Notes: a model not told the origin generated them from the letters alone. Positions 29,451 through 52,150 are shown, counted from the first letter of the stretch. The stretch: DNA of 64,000 bases from Desulfurococcales archaeon (GCA_023255955.1 JAGDWD010000005.1:14384-78383), one strand, 5' to 3'. Numbers and translations are program-made.

Positions 29451-32180
29451 TTACGTATCGCTACCGAAGTAGCTTGGGTAATAGGACATCCGCATCCCAA
29501 TTAAGGTATTCATGAGGTTACCGCCTATTAAGCCGTCTAGATTGAAGAGCACAGCTCCTCTCAGCTTCAGCTCCTCTACTACGTACCCCAGCTGTAACGC
29601 TAGCTGTACGTTTAGGAGTCTCCAGGCACCTATACCGACCAACAACCTGTCAGGTTTATTGAGGGCGCTTAGTTGCGAACTTATGTAACTCTTAAATACT
29701 GTGAAGTCCGTGGTGTAGGACATAGTGGCTACGTAGTCTACTATACCTTCATTCACCCAGCTCGCCCAGTCCTGCAGGACCGTTGAAACAGCTTGAGGGC
29801 TTGGAAATACAGCAGCCGACACTTCGATGCCTGGTCTCAGGCTCCTTGCTGTATCCGCCACCCTCCTCACCACATTCGTTATGCCGTCAACCAAGAACCT
29901 CTGGTATAGTGCTCTATCTTGTTCAGGGTCCTTACCATATACCTCCCTAAACTTCTCTGAAGAGCATTTTCCATAGACATCGCTCTGCGGAGCTCTAATC
30001 CTATCTAGCTGTATCCCCCTCACCTCGGGATACTTGGTTAAGATCTCCCGGACCATATTCAGCAACCTCTCAACGTACTCATCGCAGTAAGGATCTACCC
30101 AGCCGAGCATCTTCCCACTGCTATCGTATAGAGCTAGATCCGGTCTTTCCTTAATGAAGAAGCCCGGCTCTGTCTCACCTTCTGATAGTGCGTTGATGTA
30201 GACGTAGACCTCTATCCCATACTGCTTAGCGATCCCTATTACGTCCTTGAGGACGTCCCAGGAGTACTTCGGGCTCATCGGTGCGTAGGAGCTGTCGTAG
30301 TACACGTATCCCCAGGGATCCTTAGCTAAGAAGAAGACAGCATCTACCCCAGCAGTTGCTAGCTTTGCTAGCACTTCATCTACTTGCTTAAGCCAGGTCC
30401 CTCTGTCCGAGCTCCACTTATCTGAATATACTCCCCACCACACAGCAATGAAGGCCTTCTCATAGGACCTGCCGAGAAAGGCTTCGTAGTACTTACTAGC
30501 CAGCTCCATGTATGTAGACCAGTCCCAGTTCGGTCCCGGATCGGTGTGGTGTGATGCTCCCCCACCGAGGCTCGGGTTCTTCGGGTCCGGAACCTGGTCA
30601 TGGCCTATCACACCACCACCGGAGGCGTCTGCCGGTGCTATCCCGGAGGGCCTAGTCAGGGGGATCCCGTACTTATAGGCGAGGTAGGCGAGGAGCCTGG
30701 CTGAAGCTCTGTACTGGACCTCCGTAAACATCTTAGCCTTAACGAAGCCTTCATGCTCTATCCCCACAGACAGGGAGTTGTATAGCTTATTCCCCGCGTG
30801 CCAGGCAACATCCTTCTCTCTAACCATCTGATATACTGTACCGCCCAGAGACACTATGTAGTGAGCAGACACCCCAGCTCTAGGATCGAGGAACCAGTTT
30901 ATTGCTGACTGGGCTGAACCCTCAGTAACGTGGATGACGGCCCAGCTAATACTGGATCTATTTGCTTTTGCGTAGTTACCTGAGTAGGCCTCAATCCACT
31001 GAGCTAGTGGGTAGTCAGGTGGACCGCTCCATTCGAGTCTCAAGTTCTTGAGTAGGCTCCAAAGTGTTGGGTCCCCCAGGTCCAGTCTCCACACGGCTAC
31101 TCCTGCTAGGGAGTACTCCAACGCTAGTTTTGACCTGTAGTAGGCCATCTCACCATCCACGTAGTACGCTACACCCTCAGGGATCTCGGCCCTGAGCTCC
31201 TTAGTGGTCAGATCCAGAGTAAAGCTAGCTCCTTGCGATCTTAGGGATTGGTATTCTGGGAGTAGTAGCCACTTAAGGAGCTTGCCTGATCTATCCCATA
31301 GCTTACCATAGTTCGGGACACCGAGAACTAGCTTCTCTCTCGGTATGTACATACTAGCATACTTCACACACTCCTCCACCCACCACAGCGGGGCTACTGG
31401 CTTAGGTCCAGCTACCTCATAGAAATCGTAAGCCATAATCATTACGTAGTCAACACTCGTCTTACCCAGCAGCTCGTAGTCGTAGGTCTGTAGATAAGAG
31501 CTCGGATACTCAGCTCTCTTAGCTGGTACAGCTACAGTAAGTATGAGGCCGGCCTCATGGAGTTTCTTAGCTACTTCATCGACAAACGTGGCGAACTCGG
31601 CCTTATATGCTGGGAGGCTCACCTCGAAATCTATGTTAAACCCTACGTACCCGTACCTTCTAGCTAGATCTACTAACCGGCTGGCGAAGTTTCCTACAGC
31701 GTTCGGGTCGGTAATCAGTCTCTTAACCCTTGTGGCATCGGATGAAACCACCATGGGAGCTACAAACACTCCACGAGCTCTCGCTAGCTTAAGGAACTCA
31801 CTGTCCTCAGCGCCTCTACTAGTAAAAGAACCTACTGTAAGGTCGTCAGCTAGGTAGTACCAGTCAGGTGAAGCAAAATCTATTACTGCCCCACCAAACT
31901 GACTCAGTATCTGAGCTACGTCGCTGGATTTTGTGCTGTAGATCCATGCCCAGATAAACGGCTTCCTCTTGTAGGGAATGGTGGGTAGGGCTATCAGAGG
32001 AGCTGTAGTAGCTGTAGCCAAAGGTGAAGTTACTGTTAAAGTACTTCTACCTACTTCGGTCGTGAGTGTGGGGGTTTCATGCTCTGGGGACGGGAGGATA
32101 GTGAAGAGGTAGTATAGAGTTGAGGCTATTACGATGACTGAGACAATTAAAATAGCTAGGACTTTTCTCACGGTGCGCAC
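29451..32180 (-). CDS. secreted/anchored three-domain cell-wall hydrolase-like protein: GH18-like (YaaH/YdhD type) + N-acetylmuramoyl-L-alanine amidase (Amidase_2) + GHL10/DUF187
   Basis: N-terminal TM helix. GH18-like region is aa ~73-372 (nt 31065-31964) with GFNIDFE and MAYDF. Amidase_2 is aa ~405-556 (nt 30513-30968) with VIHVTEG, SAHYIV, AWHAG, SVGIEHEG and GHDQV...HHTDPGPNWDW. GHL10 is aa ~575-860 (nt 29601-30458) with GIQLDRIR and QDWASW. Confidence 0.85.
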   Translation of the reverse strand: MRTVRKVLAILIVSVIVIASTLYYLFTILPSPEHETPTLTTEVGRSTLTVTSPLATATTAPLIALPTIPYKRKPFIWAWIYSTKSSDVAQILSQFGGAVIDFASPDWYYLADDLTVGSFTSRGAEDSEFLKLARARGVFVAPMVVSSDATRVKRLITDPNAVGNFASRLVDLARRYGYVGFNIDFEVSLPAYKAEFATFVDEVAKKLHEAGLILTVAVPAKRAEYPSSYLQTYDYELLGKTSVDYVMIMAYDFYEVAGPKPVAPLWWVEECVKYASMYIPREKLVLGVPNYGKLWDRSGKLLKWLLLPEYQSLRSQGASFTLDLTTKELRAEIPEGVAYYVDGEMAYYRSKLALEYSLAGVAVWRLDLGDPTLWSLLKNLRLEWSGPPDYPLAQWIEAYSGNYAKANRSSISWAVIHVTEGSAQSAINWFLDPRAGVSAHYIVSLGGTVYQMVREKDVAWHAGNKLYNSLSVGIEHEGFVKAKMFTEVQYRASARLLAYLAYKYGIPLTRPSGIAPADASGGGVIGHDQVPDPKNPSLGGGASHHTDPGPNWDWSTYMELASKYYEAFLGRSYEKAFIAVWWGVYSDKWSSDRGTWLKQVDEVLAKLATAGVDAVFFLAKDPWGYVYYDSSYAPMSPKYSWDVLKDVIGIAKQYGIEVYVYINALSEGETEPGFFIKERPDLALYDSSGKMLGWVDPYCDEYVERLLNMVREILTKYPEVRGIQLDRIRAPQSDVYGKCSSEKFREVYGKDPEQDRALYQRFLVDGITNVVRRVADTARSLRPGIEVSAAVFPSPQAVSTVLQDWASWVNEGIVDYVATMSYTTDFTVFKSYISSQLSALNKPDRLLVGIGAWRLLNVQLALQLGYVVEELKLRGAVLFNLDGLIGGNLMNTLIGMRMSYYPSYFGSDT

Positions 32181-32214
32181 CGTAAAAGGTTGGTCTTAAC
32201 TGTTTTAACCGAGA

Positions 32215-32225
32215 AGTTACGTAAC
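32215..32225. promoter_or_regulatory. palindromic operator-like site AGTTACGTAAC just upstream of the TATA-like TTAAAA of the hydrolase gene
   Basis: The same 11-mer occurs at 38481-38491 upstream of the ABC binding-protein gene. In both cases the site abuts the TATA/BRE region. Confidence 0.55.
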
Positions 32226-32235
32226 CTAGAGTATC

Positions 32236-32427
32236 TCAGTGCTTTAATGCTCTGCGGAGTCCAACCGCAGATACTATAACCATGGACGCAGATACTATCA
32301 GTCCTATGAGGGCCGGTAAGAATGCTTCGTCTGACGGTGGTAGTAAGGCTAGGGCTATGGCAGATAAAACACATAGCACAGATGACAGTGCGAGGATATC
32401 GATTAGTATTATTGGGTGTACCTTCAA
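32236..32427 (-). CDS. small two-TM membrane protein, last gene of the ABC operon
   Basis: 63 aa with two hydrophobic helices. The ATG lies 4 nt after the stop of the upstream ATPase gene. Competing overlapping ORFs look less protein-like. Confidence 0.4.
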   Translation of the reverse strand: MKVHPIILIDILALSSVLCVLSAIALALLPPSDEAFLPALIGLIVSASMVIVSAVGLRRALKH

Positions 32428-32431
32428 CTCC

Positions 32432-33415
32432 TCACCCCGGGCTTGCAGGGAGCCAGCTAGGCCTCCACTTAGGTAGCTTACCTGCTTTTACACATAGTGA
32501 GTAGTGGTCTGGCCCCACCCTCAGATAGCTCCCAGGGGTAAGTGATGAGCATTCTGAGTCGAGTAGTGGGCACATCTCCGAGAACGGGCAGGGGCTACTC
32601 ACGTTCGGGTTTCTTGCTGACTCCATCACTCCGTCAAGTCCCCTAACTCTCCTTTCTGAGAGGACGAGGGGGACAGGAATGTTAGATATTAACGCCCGGG
32701 TATAGGGATGTTCAGGTCTGTAGATCACTTCGCTAGCTGGGCCGAACTCCACTACTAGGCCTTTTAGCATCACATACATGGGGTTATCCCCAGCTGCGTA
32801 GACAGCGGCACCTAGGTCGTGTGATATGAACATAATGGATGTTCCTCTGTTTTCAACTATCTTCTTTAGGAGGTTTATCAGTGAGACACGTATGGATGGA
32901 TCCACCATGCTGACAACCTCATCAGCAACTATAAGATGTGGATCTGTAATGAGTGCTCTAGCTAGAGACAGTCTCTGCCTCATCCCACCGGATAGGTGAT
33001 GCGGGTACTTATCTATAAAGTACTCAGCTGGTACTAAGCCCACCTCTTCGAGGAGCTCCCTAATGTACTTAAACCTGTCAGCATTACTTAGATGCTTCTT
33101 GTACTTCCTGACTACGGGCTCGAGTATGTTCTTAACGTTCTTGGAGGGGTTAAGTGCTGTGTACGGGTCTTGGTGAACATAGACGAATTTATGTCTATTA
33201 CTTAGATAGAAATCCTTCTGAACTATTCTACCATCCTTTACGACTACAGTATTCTCCCAGGAAAGCTCCCCGGTGGTGGGCATGACGAGCCCTACCAGGA
33301 TCTTACCTAGCGTAGTCTTTCCAGAACCGCTCTCACCTACCAAGCTTATCATGCTCTTATTGGGGATCTCAACTGAGATCGACTGTAAGGCTTTTATGAG
33401 TCTCTTCCTAAACAC
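32432..33415 (-). CDS. Opp/Dpp-type ABC ATP-binding protein (OppF-like)
   Basis: GESGSGKTT, LSGGMRQR, LIVADE. The conserved N-terminal strand (ARNVSKVYSKG) lies upstream of the first canonical start; see findings. Confidence 0.85.
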   Translation of the reverse strand: MFRKRLIKALQSISVEIPNKSMISLVGESGSGKTTLGKILVGLVMPTTGELSWENTVVVKDGRIVQKDFYLSNRHKFVYVHQDPYTALNPSKNVKNILEPVVRKYKKHLSNADRFKYIRELLEEVGLVPAEYFIDKYPHHLSGGMRQRLSLARALITDPHLIVADEVVSMVDPSIRVSLINLLKKIVENRGTSIMFISHDLGAAVYAAGDNPMYVMLKGLVVEFGPASEVIYRPEHPYTRALISNIPVPLVLSERRVRGLDGVMESARNPNVSSPCPFSEMCPLLDSECSSLTPGSYLRVGPDHYSLCVKAGKLPKWRPSWLPASPG

Positions 33416-33462
33416 ACCCTTACTGTAAACCTTACTAACATTTCTAGCATGAGCTACCGAAC

Positions 33463-34488
33463 TCAGAGCTTCTCACCTCCACTGTAGAGCCAGCACTTCA
33501 CGAACCTCTCCTTCTTAGGTTCGTAGAGAGGAGGTTCCGAGGTTCTACACTTCTCAACTGCGTAGGGACACCTCGGATGGAACTTACAGCCAGGTGGTGG
33601 GTTAAGGAGGCTTGGTGGTTCACCTGGAACTGGCTTCGGGATCCTCTTTACGTAAATATCAGCAACAGAGGGTATGGCCGATATAAGCATTGATGTGTAT
33701 GGATGTAGTGGCTCCTTAAATATCTCGTAGGTGTTCCCGACCTCAACTACTGTTCCAGCGTAGAGGACTGCTAATCTATCTGCTAGCTCCGCTACTACAG
33801 GGATATCATGGGTTATCAGTATCATGGTGTTCCTGTACTTCATCGAGACATCGTTAAGTATGTTCAGTAGGACCCTCTGAGAGAAGACGTCTAGGGCCGA
33901 CGTGGGCTCGTCCAGTATGACTAGCTCCGGTTTGAGTATCATGGTCAGCGCTATGACCACTCTCTGCTTCATCCCACCACTAAGCTCGAACGGATACTTC
34001 TTCAGTACTGTGTCAGGGTCCAGCCTCACTAGGGAGAGCATTGAGTGTATCTCGCTCATCGAGCTTTCCGGCTTCCAGAGACCGTGATTTCTCAGTGTCT
34101 CTATGAAGTGCTGCTCAACTGTCAGAACCGGGTTCAGGGAGTTCTGAGCGCCTTGCGGGATGTAGCCTATTACCTTACCACGTAACCTCCTCATAGTTCT
34201 CTCATCAGCTTTTATGAGATCTACTTCCTCACCACTCGAAAGTCTTAGTAGGGCCTCCCCACCACGTATCCTAGCGTTCCTTGGAAGTATCTTGAGGAAT
34301 GTCTCGACGAGCGACGTCTTCCCAGATCCACTCTCACCAACTATTGCCGTTATTTTTCCCTCGTCTACAAAGAGGGTGACACCACTTACTGCTTTAATAG
34401 ATCCTTCCCTCACGAGATACTCCATTCGCAAGTTTCTGAGCTCCAGCTTCGGCTTGAAGTTCTTACCTGTCCTCACCTCATCACTCAT
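33463..34488 (-). CDS. Opp/Dpp-type ABC ATP-binding protein (OppD-like)
   Basis: GESGSGKTS, LSGGMKQRV, LVILDEPTSALD, C-terminal PPGCKFHPRCPYAVEKC. Confidence 0.9.
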   Translation of the reverse strand: MSDEVRTGKNFKPKLELRNLRMEYLVREGSIKAVSGVTLFVDEGKITAIVGESGSGKTSLVETFLKILPRNARIRGGEALLRLSSGEEVDLIKADERTMRRLRGKVIGYIPQGAQNSLNPVLTVEQHFIETLRNHGLWKPESSMSEIHSMLSLVRLDPDTVLKKYPFELSGGMKQRVVIALTMILKPELVILDEPTSALDVFSQRVLLNILNDVSMKYRNTMILITHDIPVVAELADRLAVLYAGTVVEVGNTYEIFKEPLHPYTSMLISAIPSVADIYVKRIPKPVPGEPPSLLNPPPGCKFHPRCPYAVEKCRTSEPPLYEPKKERFVKCWLYSGGEKL

Positions 34489-35368
34489 AAGTCCTCAACC
34501 TCGGGTTAAACACCTCCTCAAGGGCTTGCGCGAAGAACACTACCCCTAACTTGATTACTACGAGTATGGAGATCATTAGGAACACTATGACTGACCCGTT
34601 AGGGATTAATAAACCCTTATACGTAAATATCATCTGATTGAGTAGGTACCCCCAGTTTGTTGGATTAAGAGGTGCGACGCCAAGTAGTACTATGCCTATT
34701 AGGGAAGACATGTTGGCGACGAAGAGAGTAGCGAAGTTGTAAGTTACGAATGGTAGGAGGTGTGGACCTATCTCTCTAAAGAGTATGTAGAGTTTACTTA
34801 AACCTAAGTTAATGCAGGCCTCCACGAAGTCCCTGGTTTTGAGGGAAGATACCTCAGCAGCGAGAGCCCGGGCTAGTCCCGGCCAGCTGAAGAGTGCTAG
34901 GAGTACAGCTATAGTTAGGGGGGACTTCGGTAGTACATATGCTAAGATAAATATCACCGGGAAAGACGGTATTGTTAGCCAGACGTCAGTCACAGCTGTT
35001 AGCGCTCTTCTAGCTACCCCTCCTACATATCCTGCAAAAAGTCCTACTGACATCCCGCCTATGATGCCGATTATAGTCGCTATGAACGGTATCAGGAAAA
35101 CCTCTCTAGAGCCGTGAACAACCATGGAGAGAAGATCCCTCCCCATGTAGTCACATCCTAAGGGGTGCTCCAGGGAAGGTAGGCACCACCTCATCGAAGG
35201 CTTTAGCTTGGTATCTAACGGTATTAGTGACGGGCCTACCGTAGCCATTAGAATCATAATAGCTATCATTATCAAACCAAAGAGACCTCGACCACTCCTC
35301 AGCACTGGCTTAACGAAATCTAGGTAAAAGAGGTAGAGCCCGGACTTAGTCTGAGCTCCACTACTCAT
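34481..35368 (-). CDS. Opp/Dpp-type ABC permease (OppC/DppC-like)
   Basis: 295 aa with 6 TM segments. N-terminal HPLGCDYMGRDLLS motif and an EAA-like loop. Confidence 0.85.
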   Translation of the reverse strand: MSSGAQTKSGLYLFYLDFVKPVLRSGRGLFGLIMIAIMILMATVGPSLIPLDTKLKPSMRWCLPSLEHPLGCDYMGRDLLSMVVHGSREVFLIPFIATIIGIIGGMSVGLFAGYVGGVARRALTAVTDVWLTIPSFPVIFILAYVLPKSPLTIAVLLALFSWPGLARALAAEVSSLKTRDFVEACINLGLSKLYILFREIGPHLLPFVTYNFATLFVANMSSLIGIVLLGVAPLNPTNWGYLLNQMIFTYKGLLIPNGSVIVFLMISILVVIKLGVVFFAQALEEVFNPRLRTYE

Positions 35369-36393
35369 GCTACCGCCACCTCCCGCCGTACTCTAGGGTC
35401 TATGAATGGGGTCACCATGTCCACTATTATCACCCCGATAATGGTTGCTACAGTCATCATGAAGAATATCCCCTGTAGGAGTCCGTAGTCCCTGATGCTC
35501 AACGCTATCGACAAGTAGTAACCCATACCTGGGTAGGCAAATATGGTCTCTATGAGTGTCGACCCACCTATCATGCCCCCTATTCGGAGGGCAAGGAGAG
35601 GTATCAGAGGCAGTATAGAGTTCCTACCAACGTATGTAGTTATTATCCTCCTCCTGCTTATCCCCCTAGCCTCAGCGTACTTAAGGAAGTCTTCCTCGAG
35701 GATCTTAGCGACATTTGATCTTATTAGGAGTGCCCACCCACTGAACGTTGTGACTACGTAGGTCAGTATCGGTAGTGCAGCATGGTATAGTACGTCCGCT
35801 ATGAACCTGAGGTTAAAGCCCGGCTCTACATCAGGGGAGTACGCTCCCCTTGCTGGTAGTAGCCCGAGCCTCGCAGAGAGGATTATGTAGAGGAATAGAG
35901 CTATGGCGTAGCCAGGTATTGCTGAGATCACAGTGAATGTTGACGACATGATGAAGTCTGATTTACTCCCCCGCTTAAACCCTGCTACCATCCCGGCTAG
36001 TACTCCGATGACGAATGAGAGAGATACCCCTATAGACAATGTAAATACTGTCCACCCTAAGGCCCTAGCAACTACGTATGTGACAGGCCTCTTGAAGTAT
36101 GTGGAGTAGCCTAGGTTCCCTCGAAGTAGGCCCAGAACGTACTCGAAGTACTGGACATAGATGGGCTTCTCGATCTCTATTCCGTAGTAGATAGAGTAGA
36201 CGATCTTCCTAGCCTCCTCGAACGGTATTCTCAGCTCCTCAGCTAGAGACGCGGCTAGTGTGTAGAGGACATCTCCGGGCATGGACCTTATTGCTATGAA
36301 GGTCACTGTTGAGGCTATCATTATCGTAATTAAAGCGTAAACAAGTCTCTTCCCAAGTATCTTACCGAAGGGAAAAAGAGCTTTTAAATCCAT
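35365..36393 (-). CDS. Opp/Dpp-type ABC permease (OppB/DppB-like)
   Basis: 342 aa. MPGDVLYTLA (DppB N-terminal motif), EDFLKYAEARGIS EAA loop, C-terminal DPRVR. Confidence 0.85.
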   Translation of the reverse strand: MDLKALFPFGKILGKRLVYALITIMIASTVTFIAIRSMPGDVLYTLAASLAEELRIPFEEARKIVYSIYYGIEIEKPIYVQYFEYVLGLLRGNLGYSTYFKRPVTYVVARALGWTVFTLSIGVSLSFVIGVLAGMVAGFKRGSKSDFIMSSTFTVISAIPGYAIALFLYIILSARLGLLPARGAYSPDVEPGFNLRFIADVLYHAALPILTYVVTTFSGWALLIRSNVAKILEEDFLKYAEARGISRRRIITTYVGRNSILPLIPLLALRIGGMIGGSTLIETIFAYPGMGYYLSIALSIRDYGLLQGIFFMMTVATIIGVIIVDMVTPFIDPRVRREVAVA

Positions 36394-36414
36394 CTTCCTT
36401 CCCCAACTGAGAAC

Positions 36415-38433
36415 TTATCGTAGGTAATATATGCTGAGGAGTAGGAGGGCTCTATAGTAGCCAGCATCCATCAGCCTAACGCTCCAGACTGGGTCGTCTA
36501 GTGATGGCCAGCCCTTAATGTCCTTAGTGTTCATGAAGACCCAAACACCGTACTCATATAGGTGGAACACCGGGACATACTCATTAACTATCCAGGCAAA
36601 TGCCTTAACAGCACACTTCTCTATGTCGGTACCTGGGTTGTTGTAGAGTATGCTGAAGAGCCTCGATATGTTCTCGTCCTTAGTGCAGTCCTTCCACGGG
36701 TGCTGAATATTCCACCAGTTCGGGAACGCTATAGCTCCTCCAGCTCCCCACCCTAGCATCAGTATATGCGACCATGTCCAGTACGGGTGGCCGGTGGCGT
36801 ACATGAGGCTGGATATCCATATGGTTATATCGTAGTTCCTCAGAGTCGTGTACGATGTGGCGTAGGTCTGAACGAGGGTGGTCCAGACAGCACTAGGCAC
36901 TACGTTTATCTGTGTTGATATGCCGAAGTTGTTGAGGGCTGATGCCACAGCCTCGGCAACTATCGCGTAGTCGGAGGTTATGGTTATCGTAACCGATATA
37001 GGAGTCCCATTCGGTAGCAACCACTTCCCGGTGCGGGGATCCTTCTTAAACCCTCCAGCTAACATCTCCTGCTCTGCCTTCTTAGGATCATAACTGTATT
37101 TAGTGAAGTACTTGAGGTCGTCCTGGGAGAGCCACTGCCAGAGGAACTCCTCCGGTAGACCTATGTTCAGTATGGGCTCCTTTGCCTGGAACGGGAGGGC
37201 TGTTAATATCTCGTCTCTATTTATAAGGTACGCTACTGCTCTGCGGAAGTGGGTATCGTTCATCGGGTAGCGCTGGAAGTTGAATAATATGCCAACCATT
37301 CTGAAGTGTGTTAACGGGTATATCAATAGGTTCGGGTTTAGAGCACCTATAGCATCCACCAGGTCTGGGGTAAGCGAGGAGAGGGTAGTCCAGGTAACAG
37401 CTCCCCTACCCAGCTCCTCTATGATCACAGCAGTCTCGGGTGAGCGCGACATGATCCACTTAGATACAGCTATGTTAGGTGCGTTCCAGAAATACGGGTT
37501 CTTCTCCCAGATTATGTTTGACTCAGTTATCTTAGCTGGGTAGTAGGGACCGTTAGCTAGCGATGTCGGGACCTTCTTAGCAACCTCAGTTAGGTTCCCT
37601 TTAAACCACTTGTTGAGTAGGGCTAGTCTGTCTGTGATCTCTTTAGGTATTGGTTGTGCAGTAGCTGAGAGGTAGTAACGATGCTTCAGTAGCTGGTACT
37701 GCTCTGTACATATAGGCCATAGAGGATCTACCTTATAGTATCTACTGGATGCCCAAACACCATACCATGACCACATCCACGAGGTGAGAGTCTCAAATCT
37801 TATGTTAGTTCCGTTGAAGTACCTCCTTATAGTTGTTGCGTCAACCACCTCATAGTAACCTGGGAAAGAGTTGTAGTAGCAGCCGTAGTATACTATGCTG
37901 ATGAATACGTCCTCAGCTGTTACTGGGTCCCCATTACTCCAACCAGTCTTCTTGAGCTTTACCTCAGCTATGGTAACATTCTTTACGGGATCTACCCTGA
38001 AGGTCCAGCTATCAGCTAGTAACTGAAGGAGCTTAGGGTACTCCCCGGGGAGTCCGGGCAGGGGAGCTCTCTCAGCAGGCACTAAGAAAACTAGTGGCAT
38101 GTGGGTGTAGTAGTGTAACATACCGATAGTACCCACTAACGGGTTAGTGATGTAGTTCTCTGGGGGTGGCCAGCTACCGTATAAATATATAACCTTCTCT
38201 GTCGGGGCTACGGTAATCGGTGTAGTTGTTGGGGTGGTCGGAGTAGTGGTCGGAGGGGTAGTTATGGGAGCGGTAGGTGTTGTTGTTGGGGTGGGCTTAG
38301 GTGTTGTTGTAGGTGTTGGGGTTGTTGCTGGTGCGGACGGACCCATGAGGACCATACCTGCTATGGTACCAACTACAGCTACTATAATGATTAAAGCTAC
38401 TATAATGTATAAGGTCTGTTTTTGAAGAGGCAC
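36415..38433 (-). CDS. ABC substrate-binding protein, family 5 (Opp/Dpp type), N-terminally anchored through a Thr/Pro-rich linker
   Basis: 672 aa. An N-terminal TM helix is followed by PATTPTPTTTPKPTPTTTPTAPITTPPTTTPTTPTTTP and an SBP_bac_5-like body. GTG start. Confidence 0.8.
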   Translation of the reverse strand: MPLQKQTLYIIVALIIIVAVVGTIAGMVLMGPSAPATTPTPTTTPKPTPTTTPTAPITTPPTTTPTTPTTTPITVAPTEKVIYLYGSWPPPENYITNPLVGTIGMLHYYTHMPLVFLVPAERAPLPGLPGEYPKLLQLLADSWTFRVDPVKNVTIAEVKLKKTGWSNGDPVTAEDVFISIVYYGCYYNSFPGYYEVVDATTIRRYFNGTNIRFETLTSWMWSWYGVWASSRYYKVDPLWPICTEQYQLLKHRYYLSATAQPIPKEITDRLALLNKWFKGNLTEVAKKVPTSLANGPYYPAKITESNIIWEKNPYFWNAPNIAVSKWIMSRSPETAVIIEELGRGAVTWTTLSSLTPDLVDAIGALNPNLLIYPLTHFRMVGILFNFQRYPMNDTHFRRAVAYLINRDEILTALPFQAKEPILNIGLPEEFLWQWLSQDDLKYFTKYSYDPKKAEQEMLAGGFKKDPRTGKWLLPNGTPISVTITITSDYAIVAEAVASALNNFGISTQINVVPSAVWTTLVQTYATSYTTLRNYDITIWISSLMYATGHPYWTWSHILMLGWGAGGAIAFPNWWNIQHPWKDCTKDENISRLFSILYNNPGTDIEKCAVKAFAWIVNEYVPVFHLYEYGVWVFMNTKDIKGWPSLDDPVWSVRLMDAGYYRALLLLSIYYLR

Positions 38434-38479
38434 TACGTTACCACCGAAATGCTTTACGAACTGGTGCTATTATACCTCC

Positions 38480-38493
38480 GAGTTACGTAACTC
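38480..38493. promoter_or_regulatory. perfect 14-bp palindrome GAGTTACGTAACTC directly upstream of TATA (GTATAATAG) of the ABC operon
   Basis: Shares the AGTTACGTAAC core with 32215-32225. It lies ~47-60 nt upstream of the GTG start at 38433. Confidence 0.55.
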
Positions 38494-38603
38494 AGAATTA
38501 GTATGACCTAGATCAAACATGTGGCTGAAAGGTCATCGGCTATAGGGCTCTAAAACAAGGTAAAGTTTTGTCCGAGCCTATGAGGGTGTCAGCCGTCCTC
38601 TGT

Positions 38604-39887
38604 CTACCATTGATCGATTCTCGGTATGTAGACAGCTTTCTTGTGGAATACCGTGCTCATGGTTTCCACTGCCTTAGTGCTCATGTCTATTCTCTTAACG
38701 TAGTTGGGATCTAACATCTCGCTCAGAGAGCTTATGCCGTAGATAACCCTAACTAAACCGTCCTGAGTGAACTCAATAGTGTTTTCCTCCGAGCATTCAG
38801 CGGATATCCGCACTTCAGAGCTAGATATGTATAAGTCAGCGCAGCCGAATGGGCTCTTTACGGTGACCGATGTCTGACCGTCAACGTACTTTGCTCTCCC
38901 GGAGAGTTCTGCGGCCATACTGTCGAGAAGTCCCTTAAGGTCGATTACGTAGTCCATTAGAAAGGCACCTTTAAACTCCTCAAAGTACTTTGAGAGCCCG
39001 GCGTAGGTACCTGCTGGCAGGTAGAGTCTGAAGATCTTCGCTCCCCTACTTGCTAACCGCCTTAACGTCTCCTTAATTACCACCTTAAGGTAGTGTACAT
39101 CCGTAGCTACAGCTTCAAGTACTACACCGGTATCTTTAGGGAAGTAGCTTCTCGTAGCTGATGATCCGTCAAAGGCTAGTGAGTAACCAACAGGCCTGGA
39201 AGAGTCTTTGAATAGCAATCTTATCGATGCCTCCGGTTTGTCGTAGAAGAAGCTGTACATGAAGAATTTCCGAAGTATTTTACTGACCCAGTACTCCCTC
39301 GGACGCCAAACAGCTAGATTTAAGGTCCTCCCCCACGTGTCGTGTAGTTGCATGACTGAGTCAATATTTCGTTCATCTATCTCCTCCACATCCAGCTCCT
39401 GTCTCCCCCAATCCTCGAGGAGCTTCACTACGCTGTCGTATGCTCCCACATACGTATTCAAGAATGCTGTATTCGAGAAACCGACTTTCCTATATACCCT
39501 GTAACCTTCACTGCCATAGCCTGTTAATAAAGATGCGAGGCTTAAACCCCTCTCTCTACATATGTCTATAGCCTTCCTCATAAGGGATGAGGCTATCCCC
39601 CGGCCCCGGAATTCCGGGTGGGTAGCTACGTTAGCTATACCACATATATCCACCTTACTAACACCTAGATAGACCTTCCTGAACACTATGTGGAGATGAC
39701 CTACTATCCTCCCATCAAGCTCAGCTACGAGAGCATTCTCCCTCCTATACCCGTAGTCACCTTCTTCATACGAGATCCAGTCATCCACTGTGAGACCCCA
39801 GCGATTGAAGTCGGAGAAACATACCTTGAGGAGCTCTACAATACCTCTCTCATCTCCCTCCCTATAGGTCCTTACAGTAAGTGGCAT
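38604..39887 (-). CDS. Eis-like GNAT N-acetyltransferase (GNAT + SCP2-like C-terminal region)
   Basis: 427 aa. VATHPEFRGRGIASSLMRKAI is the acetyl-CoA-binding motif. The ~400 aa three-part layout matches the Eis family. Confidence 0.7.
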   Translation of the reverse strand: MPLTVRTYREGDERGIVELLKVCFSDFNRWGLTVDDWISYEEGDYGYRRENALVAELDGRIVGHLHIVFRKVYLGVSKVDICGIANVATHPEFRGRGIASSLMRKAIDICRERGLSLASLLTGYGSEGYRVYRKVGFSNTAFLNTYVGAYDSVVKLLEDWGRQELDVEEIDERNIDSVMQLHDTWGRTLNLAVWRPREYWVSKILRKFFMYSFFYDKPEASIRLLFKDSSRPVGYSLAFDGSSATRSYFPKDTGVVLEAVATDVHYLKVVIKETLRRLASRGAKIFRLYLPAGTYAGLSKYFEEFKGAFLMDYVIDLKGLLDSMAAELSGRAKYVDGQTSVTVKSPFGCADLYISSSEVRISAECSEENTIEFTQDGLVRVIYGISSLSEMLDPNYVKRIDMSTKAVETMSTVFHKKAVYIPRIDQW

Positions 39888-40082
39888 GCTACCACCCAGT
39901 CACATCATGTGTGCAAGCTAGAGCATAAGGTAGAGACCGAGAAGACCCAACATACCTCCCTCGACAACCCTCTAAGTGTTCTACTGAAAGCATAGAGCTC
40001 CCGGAGAGTCTAGTCTATATGTTATTTTTAGGTTCTCAATTACTTACAGCTGAGGCCATCAACATCTAGAAGGAAGCAGGAT

Positions 40083-41018
40083 CTAGCGGTAGAGTACCGC
40101 ATAGGCTGCTCCGTAGAGACATGATAAGCTACCTAGAGCTGTCGCAGTAATCTTACAGGCTCTTACTGCTACGGGCTGGGCTACTCTAGAGAAAACCTCC
40201 TCTATTAAATCCTTAAATCTAATCCACAACTCTACTCCAACACTACCCCCAAACACAACAATCTCAGGGTTAAGCGCGCTGACTAAGTTCGCTACTAGGA
40301 TACCCACTACTAGCGCAACTTTCCTGAGTGTCTTCACAGCAAAGGGAGCACCGAGATCATGTGCTCGGAAGAGGCACCTAGCGTCAAGCTCTTCACATAG
40401 ATCTCTAAGGGTCTTACCTGGAAGTACCTCCTCAGAAGCATGCTTTGATACCAGCTCTGACAAGCTTAGGCCACTCACTACCTCCTCTAGGTAACCCCTC
40501 CGCGACTTACGTTTACGCGGTCTCTGCGAAAGGAGCCACCAGCCAACCGCGCCAGCAACATTTGTAGCACCTCTTAGTATCTTCCCATCAATCATTATGC
40601 CGGCACCCACTCCAGTACCAATGATTAGTGTGATAACGTTTCTCATCCCTCTAGCTGAGCCTAGCCACACCTCCCCCAAAACGCTGGCTTCTCTGTCATC
40701 TACTATCTTGAGTTTCGCAGGTTGTTTTAGGGAGTTTTTAATAGTTGAGCGCAGGTTAACGCCATCCCAGCCTCTTATGTTGGGGGCCCAGACGTAGGAG
40801 CCCCTCCAAACCGCGCCAGGTACGCAGATCCCAACTCCATCAAGCTCCCTGTGAGAGTACCTAGTAACTACCTCCCTAACTTGGTTCACCACGTAGTTCC
40901 CACCTCTTTTATCGGTCATCATATGACCTTGCTCTAAAACGTTACCTAGCCCATCAACTAAGGCGTAAGCTATCTTAGTACCACCCACATCTATTGATAG
41001 AACTAACCTACTGCTCAA
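40083..41018 (-). CDS. ROK-family sugar kinase (glucokinase / N-acetylhexosamine kinase type, no HTH domain)
   Basis: LSIDVGGTKIAYALVD, GICVPG, GTGVGAGI. It starts directly with the ATPase fold, so it is a kinase rather than a repressor. Confidence 0.85.
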   Translation of the reverse strand: MSSRLVLSIDVGGTKIAYALVDGLGNVLEQGHMMTDKRGGNYVVNQVREVVTRYSHRELDGVGICVPGAVWRGSYVWAPNIRGWDGVNLRSTIKNSLKQPAKLKIVDDREASVLGEVWLGSARGMRNVITLIIGTGVGAGIMIDGKILRGATNVAGAVGWWLLSQRPRKRKSRRGYLEEVVSGLSLSELVSKHASEEVLPGKTLRDLCEELDARCLFRAHDLGAPFAVKTLRKVALVVGILVANLVSALNPEIVVFGGSVGVELWIRFKDLIEEVFSRVAQPVAVRACKITATALGSLSCLYGAAYAVLYR

Positions 41019-41030
41019 GCTATCACCAAA

Positions 41031-41825
41031 TCACTTCGCTAAGTGCTGTGAGTACAGCTCCCTATATTTCCGCAGTACCTCCCCCATAACCTGCTCAGCG
41101 TCGGTGTCGAAGCCTCTAACTGGGAGCACGAGTACTCTATGTCCGGAGCTGATAAGGTAGGTGAGAGTCTTAAGGATTAGAGCATTAGCTACAAAAATAG
41201 ACGCTATCGTAGAGAGAGGGCCCACTCTTAGTACCCGCTCTTCGTGGGTAAAGCGTATTGATACATCTCCTTCGGGTACCCCAGTATCTATAACTACGTC
41301 AGCTACTTCATGGAGTTTAACCCCCGCTGGATGACGTGGACTGGCCTTAGCGGCATGTTTAAGTGAGGTCACACCAATGACGCGGGCTTTCCTATGCTTG
41401 AACTGTAAAGCTATTTCCACAGTTATAGGTGTCGTCCCCGAGTGCGAGAATAGTACAGCACAGTCCTCCCCATGAATCTCGTAATTCTCCACTATTCTCC
41501 GCCCATACTCTGGGGAATTCTCGATGAAGTCGAATTGGGGGTAACCCATGTCCCCAACAATCCTTAGGAACGACACTAAGGGTAAATCAACTATAGGTAG
41601 AAAACCTAGGAACGAGCCATACCTCGGAAACATCTCCATGACGGGTATTGCTGAGTGTCCAGAACCGAATAGGAAACAGACATGCCCTCCAGCAATAGTG
41701 TCTGCTATTATTTTAGCAGCTTCCTCTATTTTCGCGGCTTGAGTAGTCATTATGTAGTGAAAGACCTCAGCGACCTTCTTGTACCATTCACCAAGTAGGT
41801 CTAGCTGGCGATCTGGATTACTCAT
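41031..41825 (-). CDS. SIS-domain (SIS_2/UPF0309-like) sugar-phosphate isomerase-type protein
   Basis: 264 aa with FLFGSGHSAIP and VLFSHSGTTPITVE. It overlaps the upstream GH gene by 4 nt. Confidence 0.7.
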   Translation of the reverse strand: MSNPDRQLDLLGEWYKKVAEVFHYIMTTQAAKIEEAAKIIADTIAGGHVCFLFGSGHSAIPVMEMFPRYGSFLGFLPIVDLPLVSFLRIVGDMGYPQFDFIENSPEYGRRIVENYEIHGEDCAVLFSHSGTTPITVEIALQFKHRKARVIGVTSLKHAAKASPRHPAGVKLHEVADVVIDTGVPEGDVSIRFTHEERVLRVGPLSTIASIFVANALILKTLTYLISSGHRVLVLPVRGFDTDAEQVMGEVLRKYRELYSQHLAK

Positions 41826-43972: not shown

Positions 43973-44092
43973 GTAGGTCCCGTATGGTGTACTATGTAAA
44001 CCCTAATAACATGGTTGTTACTAATATTTCGTTTCAGTAGGTCGTAGATGCTATAAATACCTATTCCCTGTCTTAGCTATGAGAGTCTAGGT

Positions 44093-45256
44093 GTGATTAT
44101 GGGTAAGGTCGCTCTAGGTGTTGATAGATTCCTAGCAGAGGGTACCTACAGGAAGTTCATCGGCCTCAAACTTGTCGTACTGACCAACCAGAGCGCTGTA
44201 ACCTCAGGTCTCACCTACACGATCACCGAGCTCAGAGATAGGGGGATCAACGTCGTATGCGTCCTAGCTCCTGAGCACGGGTTCTGGGCTGAGTACTACG
44301 AAGGCGAGAAAGTTCCGAGCACGTACGAAGAATCCCTCGGACTCCACGTTCGCAGTATATACGGCAGGGAGAGGGGTGAAAGCTATAGAGTTCTTGACGA
44401 GGCGGATGGGGTCATAGTCGACATACAGGACGTTGGGGTGAGGTTCTACACCTACGTATCAGCACTTTTTGAGACCATGGACTACGCAGCTAAGTACGGT
44501 GTCCCGAACGTTGTGGTTCTTGATAGGCCTAACCCTCTGGGTGCTTACGTCATGGAGGGACCCCTCCTCCAGGACGAATACAGGTCCTACGTCGGGTACT
44601 ACAGAATCCCCCTGCGGTTCGGTCTCACCCTAGGTGAGTTAGCTCGGTACTACAACCTAGTGGAAAATCTAGGACTGGAAGTTACGGTAGTTCCGCTAGC
44701 TGGCTACTCCAGGTTCATGGATATTCTCGACCTAGACGTCCCCTGGGTACCACCCTCCCCAGCTATCCCCGATAGGGAGACTGTGATTACCTACCCCTCC
44801 ATAGCGTTACTTGAAGGGACTAACATAAGCGAAGGAAGAGGTACGTACACACCGTTCAAGGTCTTCGGTGCTCCGTTTATCGACCCCTTCAAGCTGGCCT
44901 CCAAGCTGAACTCAGCTAAGCTAGCCGGCGTTATCTTCAGGCCAACCTACTTCAGGTCTAGGTACTCTAAGTACTTAGGCCAGAAATGCGGTGGCGTGTT
45001 CGTTCACGTAGTTGACAGGAAGGCTGTTAGAGTGGTTAGGCTAGGTTTGCAAATACTTAGAGCAATCTACGAGCTCTACCCGGAAAACCTAGTATTCACC
45101 ACGAGTAACGGTAAGTTCTACACAGACCTACTACTCGGGACGGCTAAAGGCCGTGAGGCCGTAATCTCAGGGGAGATAGAGGAGTTCCTGCAGTACGCCT
45201 CCGACAGTGTAAAGGATTTCGAGGAGCAGGCTAGGACGGCCATGATCTACACCTAG
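44093..45256 (+). CDS. DUF1343-family protein (homologue of exo-beta-N-acetylmuramidase NamZ/YbbC)
   Basis: LGVDRFL, LVVLTNQSAV, APEHGFW, VVDIQDVGVRFYTYVS, VVVLDRPNPLG, WVPPSPAIP, LEGTNISEGRGTYTPFKVFGAP. The match to the DUF1343 pattern runs nearly end to end. Confidence 0.85.
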   Translation: MIMGKVALGVDRFLAEGTYRKFIGLKLVVLTNQSAVTSGLTYTITELRDRGINVVCVLAPEHGFWAEYYEGEKVPSTYEESLGLHVRSIYGRERGESYRVLDEADGVIVDIQDVGVRFYTYVSALFETMDYAAKYGVPNVVVLDRPNPLGAYVMEGPLLQDEYRSYVGYYRIPLRFGLTLGELARYYNLVENLGLEVTVVPLAGYSRFMDILDLDVPWVPPSPAIPDRETVITYPSIALLEGTNISEGRGTYTPFKVFGAPFIDPFKLASKLNSAKLAGVIFRPTYFRSRYSKYLGQKCGGVFVHVVDRKAVRVVRLGLQILRAIYELYPENLVFTTSNGKFYTDLLLGTAKGREAVISGEIEEFLQYASDSVKDFEEQARTAMIYT

Positions 45257-45825
45257 TGGTCGACGCATATCTAGGTTTACACAGCCAATATCTGGGTGGT
45301 GCTTTGGAGCCTGAGAAATTCATAGAGTTTCTCATGAGTAGAAGGAGCATAAGGAGGTATAAGAAGGATCCGGTCCCTGTAGACCTCCTCCTTAAGCTAG
45401 TCGAGGTAGCTAGATTCGCGCCAAGCGCTAGGAATAGCCAGCCGTGGGAGTTTGTTTTAGTGGTTGATCAGGACGTTAAGCGGAGGTTGGTTTCCATCTA
45501 TCCGTGGAGGCAGCCGCTGTCTGAGGCTCCAGCAGGTATTGTGGTCCTATGCGATGAAACAAAATCACCGCAGTTCTTCATGTATGACTGCGCGAACGCG
45601 GTGATGTATCTAATGCTAGCGGCACACGCCTACGGGCTGGGTACCGTCTGGATAGGTGTTGGAGAAAAGGAGAAGCGTATGGTTCAGGAAATTGTTCATG
45701 CTCCTCCAAATAAGATTCCTATAGCTATAGTAGCAGTAGGCTGGCCCGATGAGAAACCTTCGCCAAGGCCTAGAAAACCAGTTGAGGAGATAACCCACGT
45801 GAACAGTTACGGGGTTAGACCCTGA
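45256..45825 (+). CDS. nitroreductase-family protein
   Basis: RRSIRRYKKDPVP...ARFAPSARNSQPWEFVLV. The start overlaps the DUF1343 stop by 1 nt. Confidence 0.85.
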   Translation: MVDAYLGLHSQYLGGALEPEKFIEFLMSRRSIRRYKKDPVPVDLLLKLVEVARFAPSARNSQPWEFVLVVDQDVKRRLVSIYPWRQPLSEAPAGIVVLCDETKSPQFFMYDCANAVMYLMLAAHAYGLGTVWIGVGEKEKRMVQEIVHAPPNKIPIAIVAVGWPDEKPSPRPRKPVEEITHVNSYGVRP

Positions 45826-51168: not shown

Positions 51169-51172
51169 GAAA

Positions 51173-52150
51173 ATGGGTCTAGCTTCGTACGTAGCTAAAA
51201 GAGTACTAGAAGGCTTTTTTACTGTGATCATAGCTGTGAGTATTATTTTCTTTCTCGTGAATCTGGCTCCGGGTAACCCTATCTACTTTATTGCTGGGGA
51301 CCCGGTGTTCCTCTCTCCAGCCGTCGTAGAGTACTACACCAAGCTCTGGGGGCTGGATAAGCCTCTCTATGAGAGGTACTTCATTTACATATCGAATTTA
51401 TTTAGGGGAGAGCTCGGGAACTCATATAGGTTCGGTGGCCCAGTAGCTCAGGTAATAATGGAGAGGATACCACTTACACTTTCTCTAACTATAACTAGCA
51501 ACATACTGGCCTTCATAATCGGTACCTTCATGGGTTTAAGAGCTGCTAGGAGCTTTGGGAAGGGGCTTGACAGCGCACTTACTGTCACTACGTTCTTCTT
51601 TAACTCTATCCCAGGCTTCTTCCTTGGGATACTCCTAATGCTCACCTTCGGTGTACACCTGAGATTATTCCCTGTTGCGGGACTCATGGACTTAAGGAAC
51701 CCCAAAACAGGTATAATGCTCTACCTGGATATAGCTTACCACGCCTTCCTGCCGGTGCTGACCCTCACACTGATACTGCTCCCAGCGTACTTCAAGACCG
51801 TTAGGGACTCTGCTGTGCAGCAGCTAGGTGAAGACTATGTACTGACTTTAAGAGCTGTAGGTATGGACGAGAGGAGGATATTCAATAAGCACGTGTTCAG
51901 AAACGTTATCTTGCCACCTATAACACTTCTAGCCATAAGGTTAGGCTTCTCGCTAGCAGGGGCAGCACTCATCGAGAACGTTTTTGGATGGCCGGGAATG
52001 GGTAGGCTTCTTCTGGATTCAATAAGGGAGAGAGACTATCCGGTACTCATGGGGATATACTTCACGATCGTAGTAACCATAGTAGTAATTAGTATAATTC
52101 TTGACCTAATCTACGGAATCCTAGACCCGAGAATAAAGAGTAGGGGATAA
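51173..52150 (+). CDS. Dpp/Opp-type ABC permease (DppB-like)
   Basis: 325 aa; APGNPIYF, EDYVLTLRAVGMDE EAA loop, C-terminal DPRIK. Confidence 0.88.
   Translation: MGLASYVAKRVLEGFFTVIIAVSIIFFLVNLAPGNPIYFIAGDPVFLSPAVVEYYTKLWGLDKPLYERYFIYISNLFRGELGNSYRFGGPVAQVIMERIPLTLSLTITSNILAFIIGTFMGLRAARSFGKGLDSALTVTTFFFNSIPGFFLGILLMLTFGVHLRLFPVAGLMDLRNPKTGIMLYLDIAYHAFLPVLTLTLILLPAYFKTVRDSAVQQLGEDYVLTLRAVGMDERRIFNKHVFRNVILPPITLLAIRLGFSLAGAALIENVFGWPGMGRLLLDSIRERDYPVLMGIYFTIVVTIVVISIILDLIYGILDPRIKSRG

Follow-up and report, generated by a model that had tools for sequence, protein, structure and literature searches.

The murQ-murR-murP-amiE-nagZ-namZ operon of Bacillus subtilis unites glycosidases, an N-acetylmuramic acid (MurNAc)-L-Ala amidase, NamZ, an uptake system and a cytosolic step of the SIS type in one locus (PMC8054146). 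Here we analyze a locus of similar composition on a stretch of 64,000 nucleotides from a Desulfurococcales archaeon (GCA_023255955.1, JAGDWD010000005.1, 14384-78383), which as a whole is called the window below. The locus encodes a membrane-anchored hydrolase with three catalytic domains, an Opp-type ATP-binding cassette (ABC) importer and several sugar-processing enzymes. An original prediction, made from the sequence alone, had proposed that exogenous murein is cleaved outside the cell, imported by the Opp-type system and disassembled in the cytosol. Every computational test that we ran supported this proposal, and peptidoglycan is favored over chitin; the evidence is computational throughout. 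We estimate the probability that the locus serves a hot-spring Desulfurococcaceae-like archaeon in scavenging peptidoglycan at about 65%.

The comparison with the B. subtilis operon also brings out differences. The archaeal host makes no murein, which implies scavenging instead of recycling, and NamZ is predicted to be cytosolic here whereas it is secreted in B. subtilis. The place of the MurP phosphotransferase system is taken by an Opp-type ABC importer and a ROK kinase, and the amidase belongs to the Amidase_2 fold and not to the beta-lactamase fold of AmiE. A NagZ of family GH3 is lacking; instead we found a GH42-like glycosidase, joined in relatives by GH84, a beta-N-acetylglucosaminidase. 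Likewise, a UPF0309/SIS_2 protein stands in for MurQ and an AbrB-like protein for MurR.

NamZ-family enzymes are also used on foreign bacterial wall, as is reported for NamZ1 and NamZ2 of Tannerella forsythia (bioRxiv 10.1101/2021.12.02.470905). The bacterium Tannerella depends on MurNAc to build a wall of its own; the archaeon has no such wall, so that the imported material would rather supply carbon, nitrogen or N-acetylglucosamine (GlcNAc). An archaeal enzyme that faces outward and acts against bacterial murein is known from the peptidoglycan hydrolases of Halogranum 'Woldo', and this 2025 study left open whether bacteria are 'the resource' (PMC12352652). The haloarchaeal hydrolases, which were investigated as weapons, are secreted proteins equipped with wall-binding domains, whereas the enzyme in the window is anchored, has three catalytic domains and is tied to import and to cytosolic MurNAc enzymes. 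Since the survey in that study required a wall-binding Pfam domain, the window hydrolase would not be listed there (PMC12352652).

The chitin pathway of Thermococcus kodakarensis (ChiA, ABC importer, Dac, GlmA, GlmD) resembles the locus in that GH18, an Opp-type importer, a clan GH-A exo-glycosidase and a SIS-type enzyme occur together. In contrast to this pathway, the locus shows no Dac, no chitin-binding module and no kinship to GlmA, and Amidase_2, GHL10 and NamZ, as well as S13 and AnmK in relatives, have no place in the chitin pathway. What is new with respect to the known systems is the archaeal host, the tri-domain surface enzyme, the Opp-based import and a candidate etherase of a SIS family other than MurQ. 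Full-text literature searches returned no description of an archaeal NamZ, AnmK, MurQ or MurNAc pathway.

Organization of the locus

The window is archaeal: it encodes a transcription factor B (TFB), and the nearest loci in the species-level genome collection belong to metagenome-assembled genomes (MAGs) labelled Desulfurococcaceae, Sulfolobales and Desulfurococcales. The sequence itself stems from a metagenome contig of the JGI. Scans of the window with Rfam and for tRNA genes yielded nothing of taxonomic use. Domains were called with Pfam models above the gathering score and additionally with NCBIfam models that have their own cut-offs. The locus contains the following features (positions counted from the first nucleotide of the window):

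28307-29281, + strand: AbrB/MazE-like protein of 324 aa, candidate transcription regulator, with Pfam MazE_antitoxin at the N-terminus
29451-32180, - strand: tri-domain putative peptidoglycan hydrolase of 909 aa, predicted to be membrane-anchored, with Glyco_hydro_18, Amidase_2 and GHL10
Within it, - strand: transmembrane anchor ~32094-32162; GH18 31080-31724; Amidase_2 30531-30956; GHL10 29682-30389
32216-32225, strand not assigned: palindrome GTTACGTAAC, candidate operator of the hydrolase gene, just upstream of a TATA-like box
32236-32427, - strand: 63-aa protein with two hydrophobic segments, without family match
32432-33415, - strand: OppF, ABC_tran and oligo_HPY
33463-34488, - strand: OppD, ABC_tran and oligo_HPY
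34481-35368, - strand: OppC, BPD_transp_1
35365-36393, - strand: OppB, BPD_transp_1
36415-38433, - strand: OppA binding protein, SBP_bac_5
38482-38491, strand not assigned: second copy of the palindrome, Opp operon, upstream of a TATA-like box
38604-39887, - strand: Eis-like GNAT of 427 aa, Pfam Acetyltransf_9
40083-41018, - strand: ROK sugar kinase without a helix-turn-helix, Pfam ROK at residues 7-308
41031-41825, - strand: SIS_2/UPF0309 phosphosugar enzyme, SIS_2 and NCBIfam PRK02947
41822-43972, - strand: GH42-like glycosidase, predicted cytosolic, Glyco_hydro_42 and 42M, 4-nt overlap with the SIS_2 gene
44099-45256, + strand: NamZ-family (GH171) homologue, NamZ_N and NamZ_C (formerly DUF1343); the start is that of the public gene call (385 aa), two codons downstream of the start of the longest open reading frame (ORF) at 44093
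45256-45825, + strand: nitroreductase (Pfam); the public gene call begins at 45304
45943-47907, + strand: Peptidase_S9 (Pfam)

All ORFs and domains that the original prediction had listed for 29451-45825 were recovered. This includes the complete five-component importer (one SBP_bac_5, two BPD_transp_1 and two ABC_tran + oligo_HPY proteins, all adjacent), the overlap of the SIS_2 and GH42-like genes, and the kinase lacking a helix-turn-helix, in which the ROK domain covers residues 7-308. Two assignments have to be revised. The nitroreductase and the S9 peptidase had been counted with the block or placed next to it, yet neither is a conserved partner in any other locus examined; in the divergent gene set on the NamZ side the S9 peptidase gene is followed by a gene for a major facilitator superfamily (MFS) transporter. 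The AbrB-like gene and the two operator-like palindromes, on the other hand, had been missing from the listing and belong to the system.

Surface hydrolase

The 909-aa protein begins with a basic cluster, one hydrophobic helix and a Thr/Pro-rich linker, and the N-terminus of OppA is built likewise. Basic residues, a hydrophobic helix and a Thr/Pro-rich stalk are the usual look of crenarchaeal surface-anchored proteins. The layout of both fits proteins that are anchored in the membrane and face outward.

The GH18 domain scores 79.2 bits with Pfam PF00704 (cut-off 29.6). Its closest PDB matches are YdhD (3cz8, 3e-21), SleL (4s3j) and YaaH (4s3k), with chitinases matching much more weakly. In the DxxDxDxE motif the two upstream Asp are replaced by Val and Asn, while D184 and E186 are present in 'GFNIDFE', as are Y251 and D252 in 'MIMAYDFY'. 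With D184-x-E186 and Y251-D252 in place, the domain could feasibly cut by substrate assistance, the -1 subsite being occupied by GlcNAc.

Amidase_2 covers residues 409-550 with 105.6 bits (PF01510, cut-off 26). The Zn ligands H417, H527 and D547 as well as E475 align with the motifs of AmpD and AmpDh2; AmpD positions are given in the numbering of that protein. Outside the archaea the domain is most closely related to secreted amidases from Actinomycetota and Chloroflexota (45-51% identity).

The third domain exceeds the cut-off of Pfam PF02638 (GHL10; 64 bits against 27.9), a model with which DigH/YddW of E. coli scores 453 bits. It can be aligned with E. coli DigH at an E value of 2e-8, and identity to Cwp19 and DigH lies at 15-23%. 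A sequence search of the domain against the PDB found neither Cwp19 nor any other match at the sequence level. We therefore turned to an AlphaFold2 model (predicted local distance difference test score 83.5, predicted TM score 0.85), for which Cwp19 was the best fold match: Foldseek against the PDB ranked 5oq3 and 5oq2 at the top (E 1.3e-18, TM 0.73-0.76), followed by the next match at 3e-12. Cwp19 of C. difficile is a peptidoglycan lytic transglycosylase (PMC6016235), and DigH specifically attacks the denuded glycan that results from amidase action (PMC12288456). The fusion of an amidase to a GHL10 domain is mechanistically coherent because DigH degrades just the glycan that amidases leave behind. 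The CWB2 or lipoprotein modules of Cwp19 and DigH are missing from the archaeal protein.

Judged by sequence and structure model, all three domains point to peptidoglycan. The combination of the three is unprecedented. It occurs in only ~8 clusters at 90% identity, and the cluster with a named source as well as the contigs that we fetched are Sulfolobales/Desulfurococcaceae-type archaeal MAGs.

NamZ and its neighborhoods in other archaea

The NamZ homologue of the window scores 209 bits for NamZ_N (cut-off 26.9) and 146 bits for NamZ_C (cut-off 25) and matches PDB entry 4k05 at 3e-59. In an alignment of 120 homologues, 47 columns show a conservation of at least 97%, and the window protein retains every one of them; the columns of E61 (PEHG) and R249 (EGRG) are invariant in 120 of 120 sequences. 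The putative catalytic residues of the B. subtilis enzyme are Glu92 at the tip of beta2 and Arg279 in the C-domain (PMC8054146). From the motif description given in the same study we infer that E61 probably equals E92 and R249 probably equals R279. NamZ acts solely on non-reducing MurNAc, with no other substrate known (PMC8054146). Such ends result from a glucosaminidase cut, as expected of the GH18 domain. No signal peptide or anchor-type N-terminus was seen in NamZ, the GH42-like enzyme, ROK or SIS_2.

In a neighbor-joining tree calculated without bootstrap, the 27 best NamZ matches form one clade whose named members are all Sulfolobales archaea, and bacterial NamZ proteins (Anaerolineae, Bacilli) fall outside. 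This points to one old acquisition followed by long retention.

Several of these archaeal NamZ genes stand in informative surroundings (loci of other genomes are numbered L001 and so on). The most complete is L009 (GCA_038897115.1, JAWAXC010000004.1, 5000-21000), which recurs as L010 in another MAG. Its first part contains an Opp-type substrate-binding protein (SBP) and permeases, GH84, NamZ, a BadF/NagK-type kinase, SIS_2 and a small GNAT, and its second part another Opp-type SBP with permeases, an AbrB-like protein of 320 aa, AnmK and a Beta-lactamase-fold protein similar to PBP4B/AmiE. AnmK of L009 reaches 440.6 bits against the NCBIfam equivalog cut-off of 387; that an archaeon encodes an anhydro-MurNAc kinase deserves attention by itself. 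Beta-lactamase, AbrB-like protein, AnmK, Opp components and NamZ are likewise found in L016, and GH84 adjoins NamZ in L015. In L014 the neighbors of NamZ are an AbrB-like gene (62% identical to that of the window), GlmS and a sugar nucleotidyltransferase. The same functional set is thus rebuilt with non-orthologous parts (ROK or BadF kinase, GH42-like enzyme and/or GH84), which is a pathway signature and not chance adjacency.

Another archaeal NamZ lineage is represented by L007 (11168-12409) and L012 (8313-9545), in which NamZ is followed by an Orn/diaminopimelate (DAP)/Arg decarboxylase and lies near three GH130 genes. We dropped this decarboxylase as evidence for peptidoglycan, as it is too unspecific. 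Also dropped was the reading of PF19328 near NamZ or SIS_2 (L014, L021) as a meso-DAP dehydrogenase; Pfam describes this family as 2,4-diaminopentanoate dehydrogenase.

Phosphosugar enzyme, kinase and glycosidase

The SIS_2 protein belongs to UPF0309 (PRK02947, 210.3 bits against a cut-off of 135) and fails the MurQ model PRK05441 (22.7 bits against 168), i.e. it is not a member of the MurQ family. MurQ eliminates the 3-O-lactyl group from MurNAc-6-phosphate (MurNAc-6-P) and then re-hydrates the product, and the first half of this reaction is chemistry of the NagS type. PDB matches are 3cvj (8e-26) and NagS (9eol, 4e-18), with identity to NagS below 30%. NagS (SCO4393) is a GlcNAc-6-P dehydratase that eliminates the C3 substituent; it forms a clade sister to MurQ, and residues H53, R64, E94 and D179 are essential (PMC12680351). 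The positions H53, S54, R64, E94, S119, S121 and D179 of NagS correspond to H57, S58, R68, E102, S127, S129 and D187 in the window protein, so that the phosphate-binding serines are retained as well, and the essential residues are also kept in the homologues from Caldivirga and L009. In the genomes it is accompanied by a kinase, glycosidases, NamZ and AnmK, and not by dmdR1 as in the case of NagS. In L009 AnmK yields MurNAc-6-P and SIS_2 is the sole SIS enzyme, from which we propose that SIS_2 acts as the etherase. The protein is the best candidate for a MurNAc-6-P etherase that would be non-orthologous to MurQ.

ROK scores 139.6 bits with Pfam, and its matches to the NCBIfam glucokinase, NanK and NagK models are all below the cut-offs. 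It adjoins SIS_2 in the window, L021 and Caldivirga, and the BadF/NagK-type kinase takes its place in L009; it is presumably a GlcNAc/MurNAc 6-kinase.

The glycosidase matches GH42 with 149.6 bits and GH42M with 52 bits, and E154 and E324 align with the acid/base and the nucleophile of GH42. In clan GH-A the Asn of the NEP motif contacts O2 of the -1 sugar. The acid/base motif of the window protein reads 'WSEPQ' with Ser in place of this Asn. We named the subfamily 'WSEPH' after the motif that it shows in place of 'WNEP'; Ser stands at this column in the window protein and its ~15 nearest representatives, compared with Asn in 91 of ~140 aligned sequences. An amino-sugar specificity, e.g. for de-N-acetylated glucosamine (GlcN)-MurNAc, would be plausible. 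Representatives of the subfamily (P0322-P0334, P0338, P0343) stem from archaea and bacteria, including Limnochordales, and fusions occur to an MFS transporter in P0328 (Bryobacteraceae) and to a protein kinase domain in P0343. The likening of the enzyme to GlmA was not supported: among PDB matches with E<=0.001 there is no GlmA chain, and the strong matches are all GH42. We also rejected the idea that it is a mere stand-in for GH84 or NagZ, given that it shares one operon with GH84 in L021.

On the same strand the GH42-like gene precedes SIS_2-ROK in L021, and in Caldivirga it is divergent from them. The latter arrangement (L017, Caldivirga maquilingensis CP000852, 82585-103376) comprises the GH42-like gene (48% identity), SIS_2 (65%) and ROK (44%). 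An Eis-like GNAT and an MFS gene lie 8 kb away in this cultured crenarchaeon, which makes the function of the module tractable.

The Eis-like GNAT gave only weak PDB matches to the Eis-like proteins 3n7z and 4my0 and no functional lead. Its place in the gene order is unchanged in L001, L002 and L021, and a different small GNAT adjoins SIS_2 in L009.

Conservation in related archaea

Comparison with related archaea had been suggested as a check of the prediction, and we found the gene order kept at 84%, 65-69% and ~50% identity. The recurring order is GH42-like, SIS_2, ROK, (GH84), GNAT, OppABCDF, small ORF, hydrolase, seen in stretches across the window, L001, L002, L019 and L021. In L001 (84% identity) GNAT is followed by OppABCDF, the small ORF and the tri-domain gene, past which the AbrB-like gene is located; L002 (65-69%) shows ROK, GNAT, OppABCDF, the small ORF and the hydrolase. 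L021, in which SIS_2 is 65% identical, contains GH42-like, SIS_2, ROK, GH84 NAGidase, Eis-like GNAT and OppABCDF, with the small ORF at the edge of the locus. In L001, L002 and L019 the Opp genes and the hydrolase gene are collinear. The 63-aa ORF, for which no family match was found, lies between OppF and hydrolase in L001 and L002 (59-61% identity) and as a 65-aa ORF in L019. This clustering is not due to chance.

L019 (~50%) encodes OppBCDF, the 65-aa ORF, a tri-domain protein and a second large protein. The tri-domain protein (P0248) has a degenerate GH18 motif, NIVLE. The motif is intact (NIDFE) in its partner (7738-10563; P0250, a surface protein of 941 aa), where GH18 is combined with Peptidase_S13, a DD-carboxy/endopeptidase (312 bits, SxxK and KTG intact). 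A DD-peptidase has no substrate beyond murein-type peptides, which makes this fusion strong independent evidence for the target of the GH18 lineage.

A shared candidate operator

The window contains exactly two copies of a perfect palindrome of 10 bp, GTTACGTAAC, where ~0.06 exact copies are expected by chance in 64 kb. Both copies are intergenic and located within the locus, each followed on the coding strand by CTCGG and the TATA-like box. The same two sites are occupied in L001, at 1369-1378 (OppA) and 7631-7640 (hydrolase). Upstream of OppA the palindrome was furthermore detected in L002 (3699-3708), L021 (14671-14680) and L022 (6135-6144), with 65-100% identity between the loci, and in L003 (14605-14614) it lies ~30 bp upstream of the start of an AbrB-like gene.

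The only candidate DNA-binding protein that travels with these loci is the AbrB-like protein (MazE_antitoxin, 36.8 bits), whose PDB matches gave no functional lead. Homologues with 26-65% identity stand beside the tri-domain gene (L001), a GH18-only gene (L003), NamZ (L014), and AnmK and Beta-lactamase (L009, L016). The importer and hydrolase promoters are probably controlled by the AbrB-like protein acting at the palindrome.

Proposed pathway and alternative explanations

We observed domain identities, active-site conservation, synteny, and co-occurrence with AnmK, GH84 and S13 peptidase in relatives. On this basis we infer every substrate and activity of the following scheme, among them the etherase role of SIS_2, as well as the roles of the GH42-like enzyme and GNAT and the pairing of regulator and operator. 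Bacterial sacculi or wall fragments would be attacked outside the cell by the membrane-anchored enzyme, with Amidase_2 stripping the stem peptides off MurNAc, and GH18 and GHL10 cutting the denuded glycan to di- and oligosaccharides. The Opp-type importer would take up these products. In the cytosol NamZ may then remove the non-reducing MurNAc from MurNAc-GlcNAc, the glucosaminidase product, and complementary GlcNAc/GlcN-MurNAc units would be handled by the GH42-like enzyme, joined by GH84 in the sister lineage. ROK would make the sugar 6-phosphates, and SIS_2/UPF0309 is the candidate for removing the D-lactyl ether, converting MurNAc-6-P to GlcNAc-6-P. Only tentatively, as possible but short of an even chance, do we put forward the scheme in its most specific form. 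In this form a hyperthermophilic Desulfurococcaceae-like clade would feed on bacterial wall by a complete, archaeon-specific MurNAc pathway made of a three-in-one surface hydrolase, Opp import, cytosolic NamZ, UPF0309/SIS_2 as a new non-orthologous etherase and the 'WSEPH' GH42-like enzyme with a new amino-sugar (GlcN/GlcNAc-MurNAc) specificity.

A number of observations weigh against peptidoglycan scavenging. No LysM or other wall-binding domain was recognized by Pfam in the hydrolase. In Amidase_2 the Lys162 of AmpD (K128 of T7) is replaced by His, 'RKTDPG' becoming 'HHTDPG', and this His is conserved in 8 of 8 archaeal homologues. The catalytic mechanism of GHL10 is unsettled, with Asp195-Asp196-Tyr197 as the proposed catalytic region of Cwp19 (PMC5765458); this stretch, 'FDDY' in DigH, reads 'LDRI' in the archaeal domain (first Asp = D726), such that DD(Y) becomes DR(I), the putative catalytic Asp196 being Arg and the Tyr being Ile. 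LDRIRAP is kept in 8 of 8 archaeal homologues. NagS homologues at ~26-36% identity showed no NagS activity in vitro (PMC12680351), and a rhizobial SIS_2 homologue is located in an unrelated cluster that offers no functional lead. The gaps in the pathway that the original prediction had itself pointed out were filled in part: SIS_2 with its NagS residues may substitute for MurQ, and GH84 in the operon of L021 for NagZ. For the remaining one, the NagA/Dac deacetylase, no gene was found in the 64-kb window, nor was one found there for a GlcN-6-P deaminase (NagB/GlmD), for AnmK or a stem-peptide-specific peptidase, or for MurQ itself. NamZ is not adjacent to the operon in L021. Within 10 kb of the Caldivirga genes for the GH42-like enzyme, SIS_2 and ROK there is no NamZ or peptidoglycan hydrolase, by which this module may serve another amino sugar. 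Finally, GTTACGTAAC was not found at the GH42/NamZ, GNAT, S9 and MFS promoters of the window, and its absence from the GH42/NamZ and GNAT promoters limits the evidence for co-regulation to the Opp and hydrolase promoters.

We therefore weighed other explanations, each of which explains less of the evidence than murein scavenging. The locus could serve the use of chitin, chitosan or another GlcNAc/GlcN glycan in the manner of Thermococcus, with GH18 as chitinase, the GH42-like enzyme as exo-beta-glucosaminidase, ROK as GlcN/GlcNAc kinase and SIS_2 as GlcN-6-P deaminase, and with the peptidoglycan-type domains being accessory or acting on other amide or glycosidic bonds. GH18 is indeed the main chitinase family and chitinases are among its weaker PDB matches, several SIS enzymes are amino-sugar-6-P deaminases, the Ser in place of the C2-contacting Asn fits a 2-amino/2-acetamido sugar, and the Caldivirga module stands alone. 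We nevertheless consider this unlikely, as GH18 matches the spore-cortex enzymes YdhD and SleL better than chitinases, and as it shares a polypeptide with Amidase_2 and GHL10, or in L019 with a DD-peptidase, none of which has a role in chitin use. Moreover, NamZ is known only to act on non-reducing MurNAc (PMC8054146), AnmK occurs in sister loci, SIS_2 keeps the elimination residues of NagS, and neither a chitin-binding module nor a Dac-type deacetylase nor a relative of GlmA was detected. An own-envelope glycan, e.g. the chitobiose core of N-glycans with GH18 as endo-beta-N-acetylglucosaminidase (ENGase), seems a highly improbable substrate for turnover or remodelling. Amidase_2, NamZ, AnmK and the S13 DD-peptidase would have no substrate in a murein-free envelope, and we saw no genes for MurNAc biosynthesis. 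What speaks for it is the position of NamZ beside GlmS and the nucleotidyltransferase in L014 and a weak signal of GH85 (ENGase) over the GH18 domain, which in the window protein is below the cut-off (19.6 bits against 22.2).

The hydrolase could also be an antibacterial weapon that lyses neighbors in defence of a niche, with the transport and sugar genes as part of general scavenging. Archaeal peptidoglycan hydrolases that kill bacteria are documented, in a study that left competition versus nutrition open (PMC12352652), and an enzyme of multiple activities would be an efficient lysin. Still, it is anchored and not secreted, has no wall-targeting domain and shares operator and operon neighborhood with the importer, and cytosolic MurNAc enzymes (NamZ here, AnmK in relatives) are only sensible if wall sugars are imported; we thus regard a weapon as quite unlikely, noting that killing and feeding are not mutually exclusive. 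In a fourth explanation three modules with unrelated substrates, namely Opp with the hydrolase, GH42-like with SIS_2, ROK and GNAT, and NamZ with the nitroreductase, came together fortuitously. The second of them is found alone in Caldivirga, NamZ occurs in other contexts in L007, L012 and L014, the palindrome marks only the Opp and hydrolase promoters, and the nitroreductase and S9 peptidase are not conserved neighbors. The first two modules are, however, arranged collinearly on a single strand in the window, L002 and L021 (65-100% identity). In L009, SIS_2, GNAT, NamZ, Opp components and the AbrB-like protein come together again, this time with a non-orthologous kinase and a non-orthologous glycosidase, which is a signature of functional linkage. 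Loci of the hydrolase, of NamZ and of AnmK in different genomes are also connected by the AbrB-like protein. All this makes mere juxtaposition very unlikely.

Other genes of the window

Two further genes could help in processing wall peptides or proteins. Members of the M19 family can cleave L-Xaa-D-Xaa dipeptides, and an M19 dipeptidase is encoded at 24944-25972 on the - strand, 3.5 kb off the locus. The other is an S8 subtilase of 869 aa (13421-16030, - strand). Neither of them is a conserved companion of the locus. An orphan pair of Opp-type ATPases (ABC_tran + oligo_HPY, 6627-8678) has no adjoining permeases, and ~40 kb from it a second SBP_bac_5 with a two-permease set (49342-53008) comes without ATPases; the two may cooperate. 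In addition, two sets of thiolase, ACP_syn_III-like and OB-fold or SDR genes (3993-6545 and 53824-58761) correspond to archaeal complexes of the acetoacetyl-CoA thiolase/HMG-CoA synthase type.

Significance

In this locus a putative murein hydrolase that faces outward is tied, both physically and by regulation, to an importer and to MurNAc enzymes of the cytosol. In the most specific form of the scheme, the etherase role of SIS_2 would be the first function for the large orphan part of the UPF0309/SIS_2 family. Peptidoglycan scavenging would also make the locus a source of candidates, namely for a new family of etherases, for a GH42-like enzyme of new specificity and for a thermostable lysin with multiple activities. 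Whether archaea eat living or dead bacteria is an open question, as the 2025 study of archaeal murein hydrolases states explicitly (PMC12352652), and the locus makes the nutritional hypothesis testable with few thermostable proteins. If confirmed, the locus would encode the first pathway by which an archaeon feeds on peptidoglycan, and peptidoglycan would join the substrates that are recycled by hot-spring Thermoproteota.

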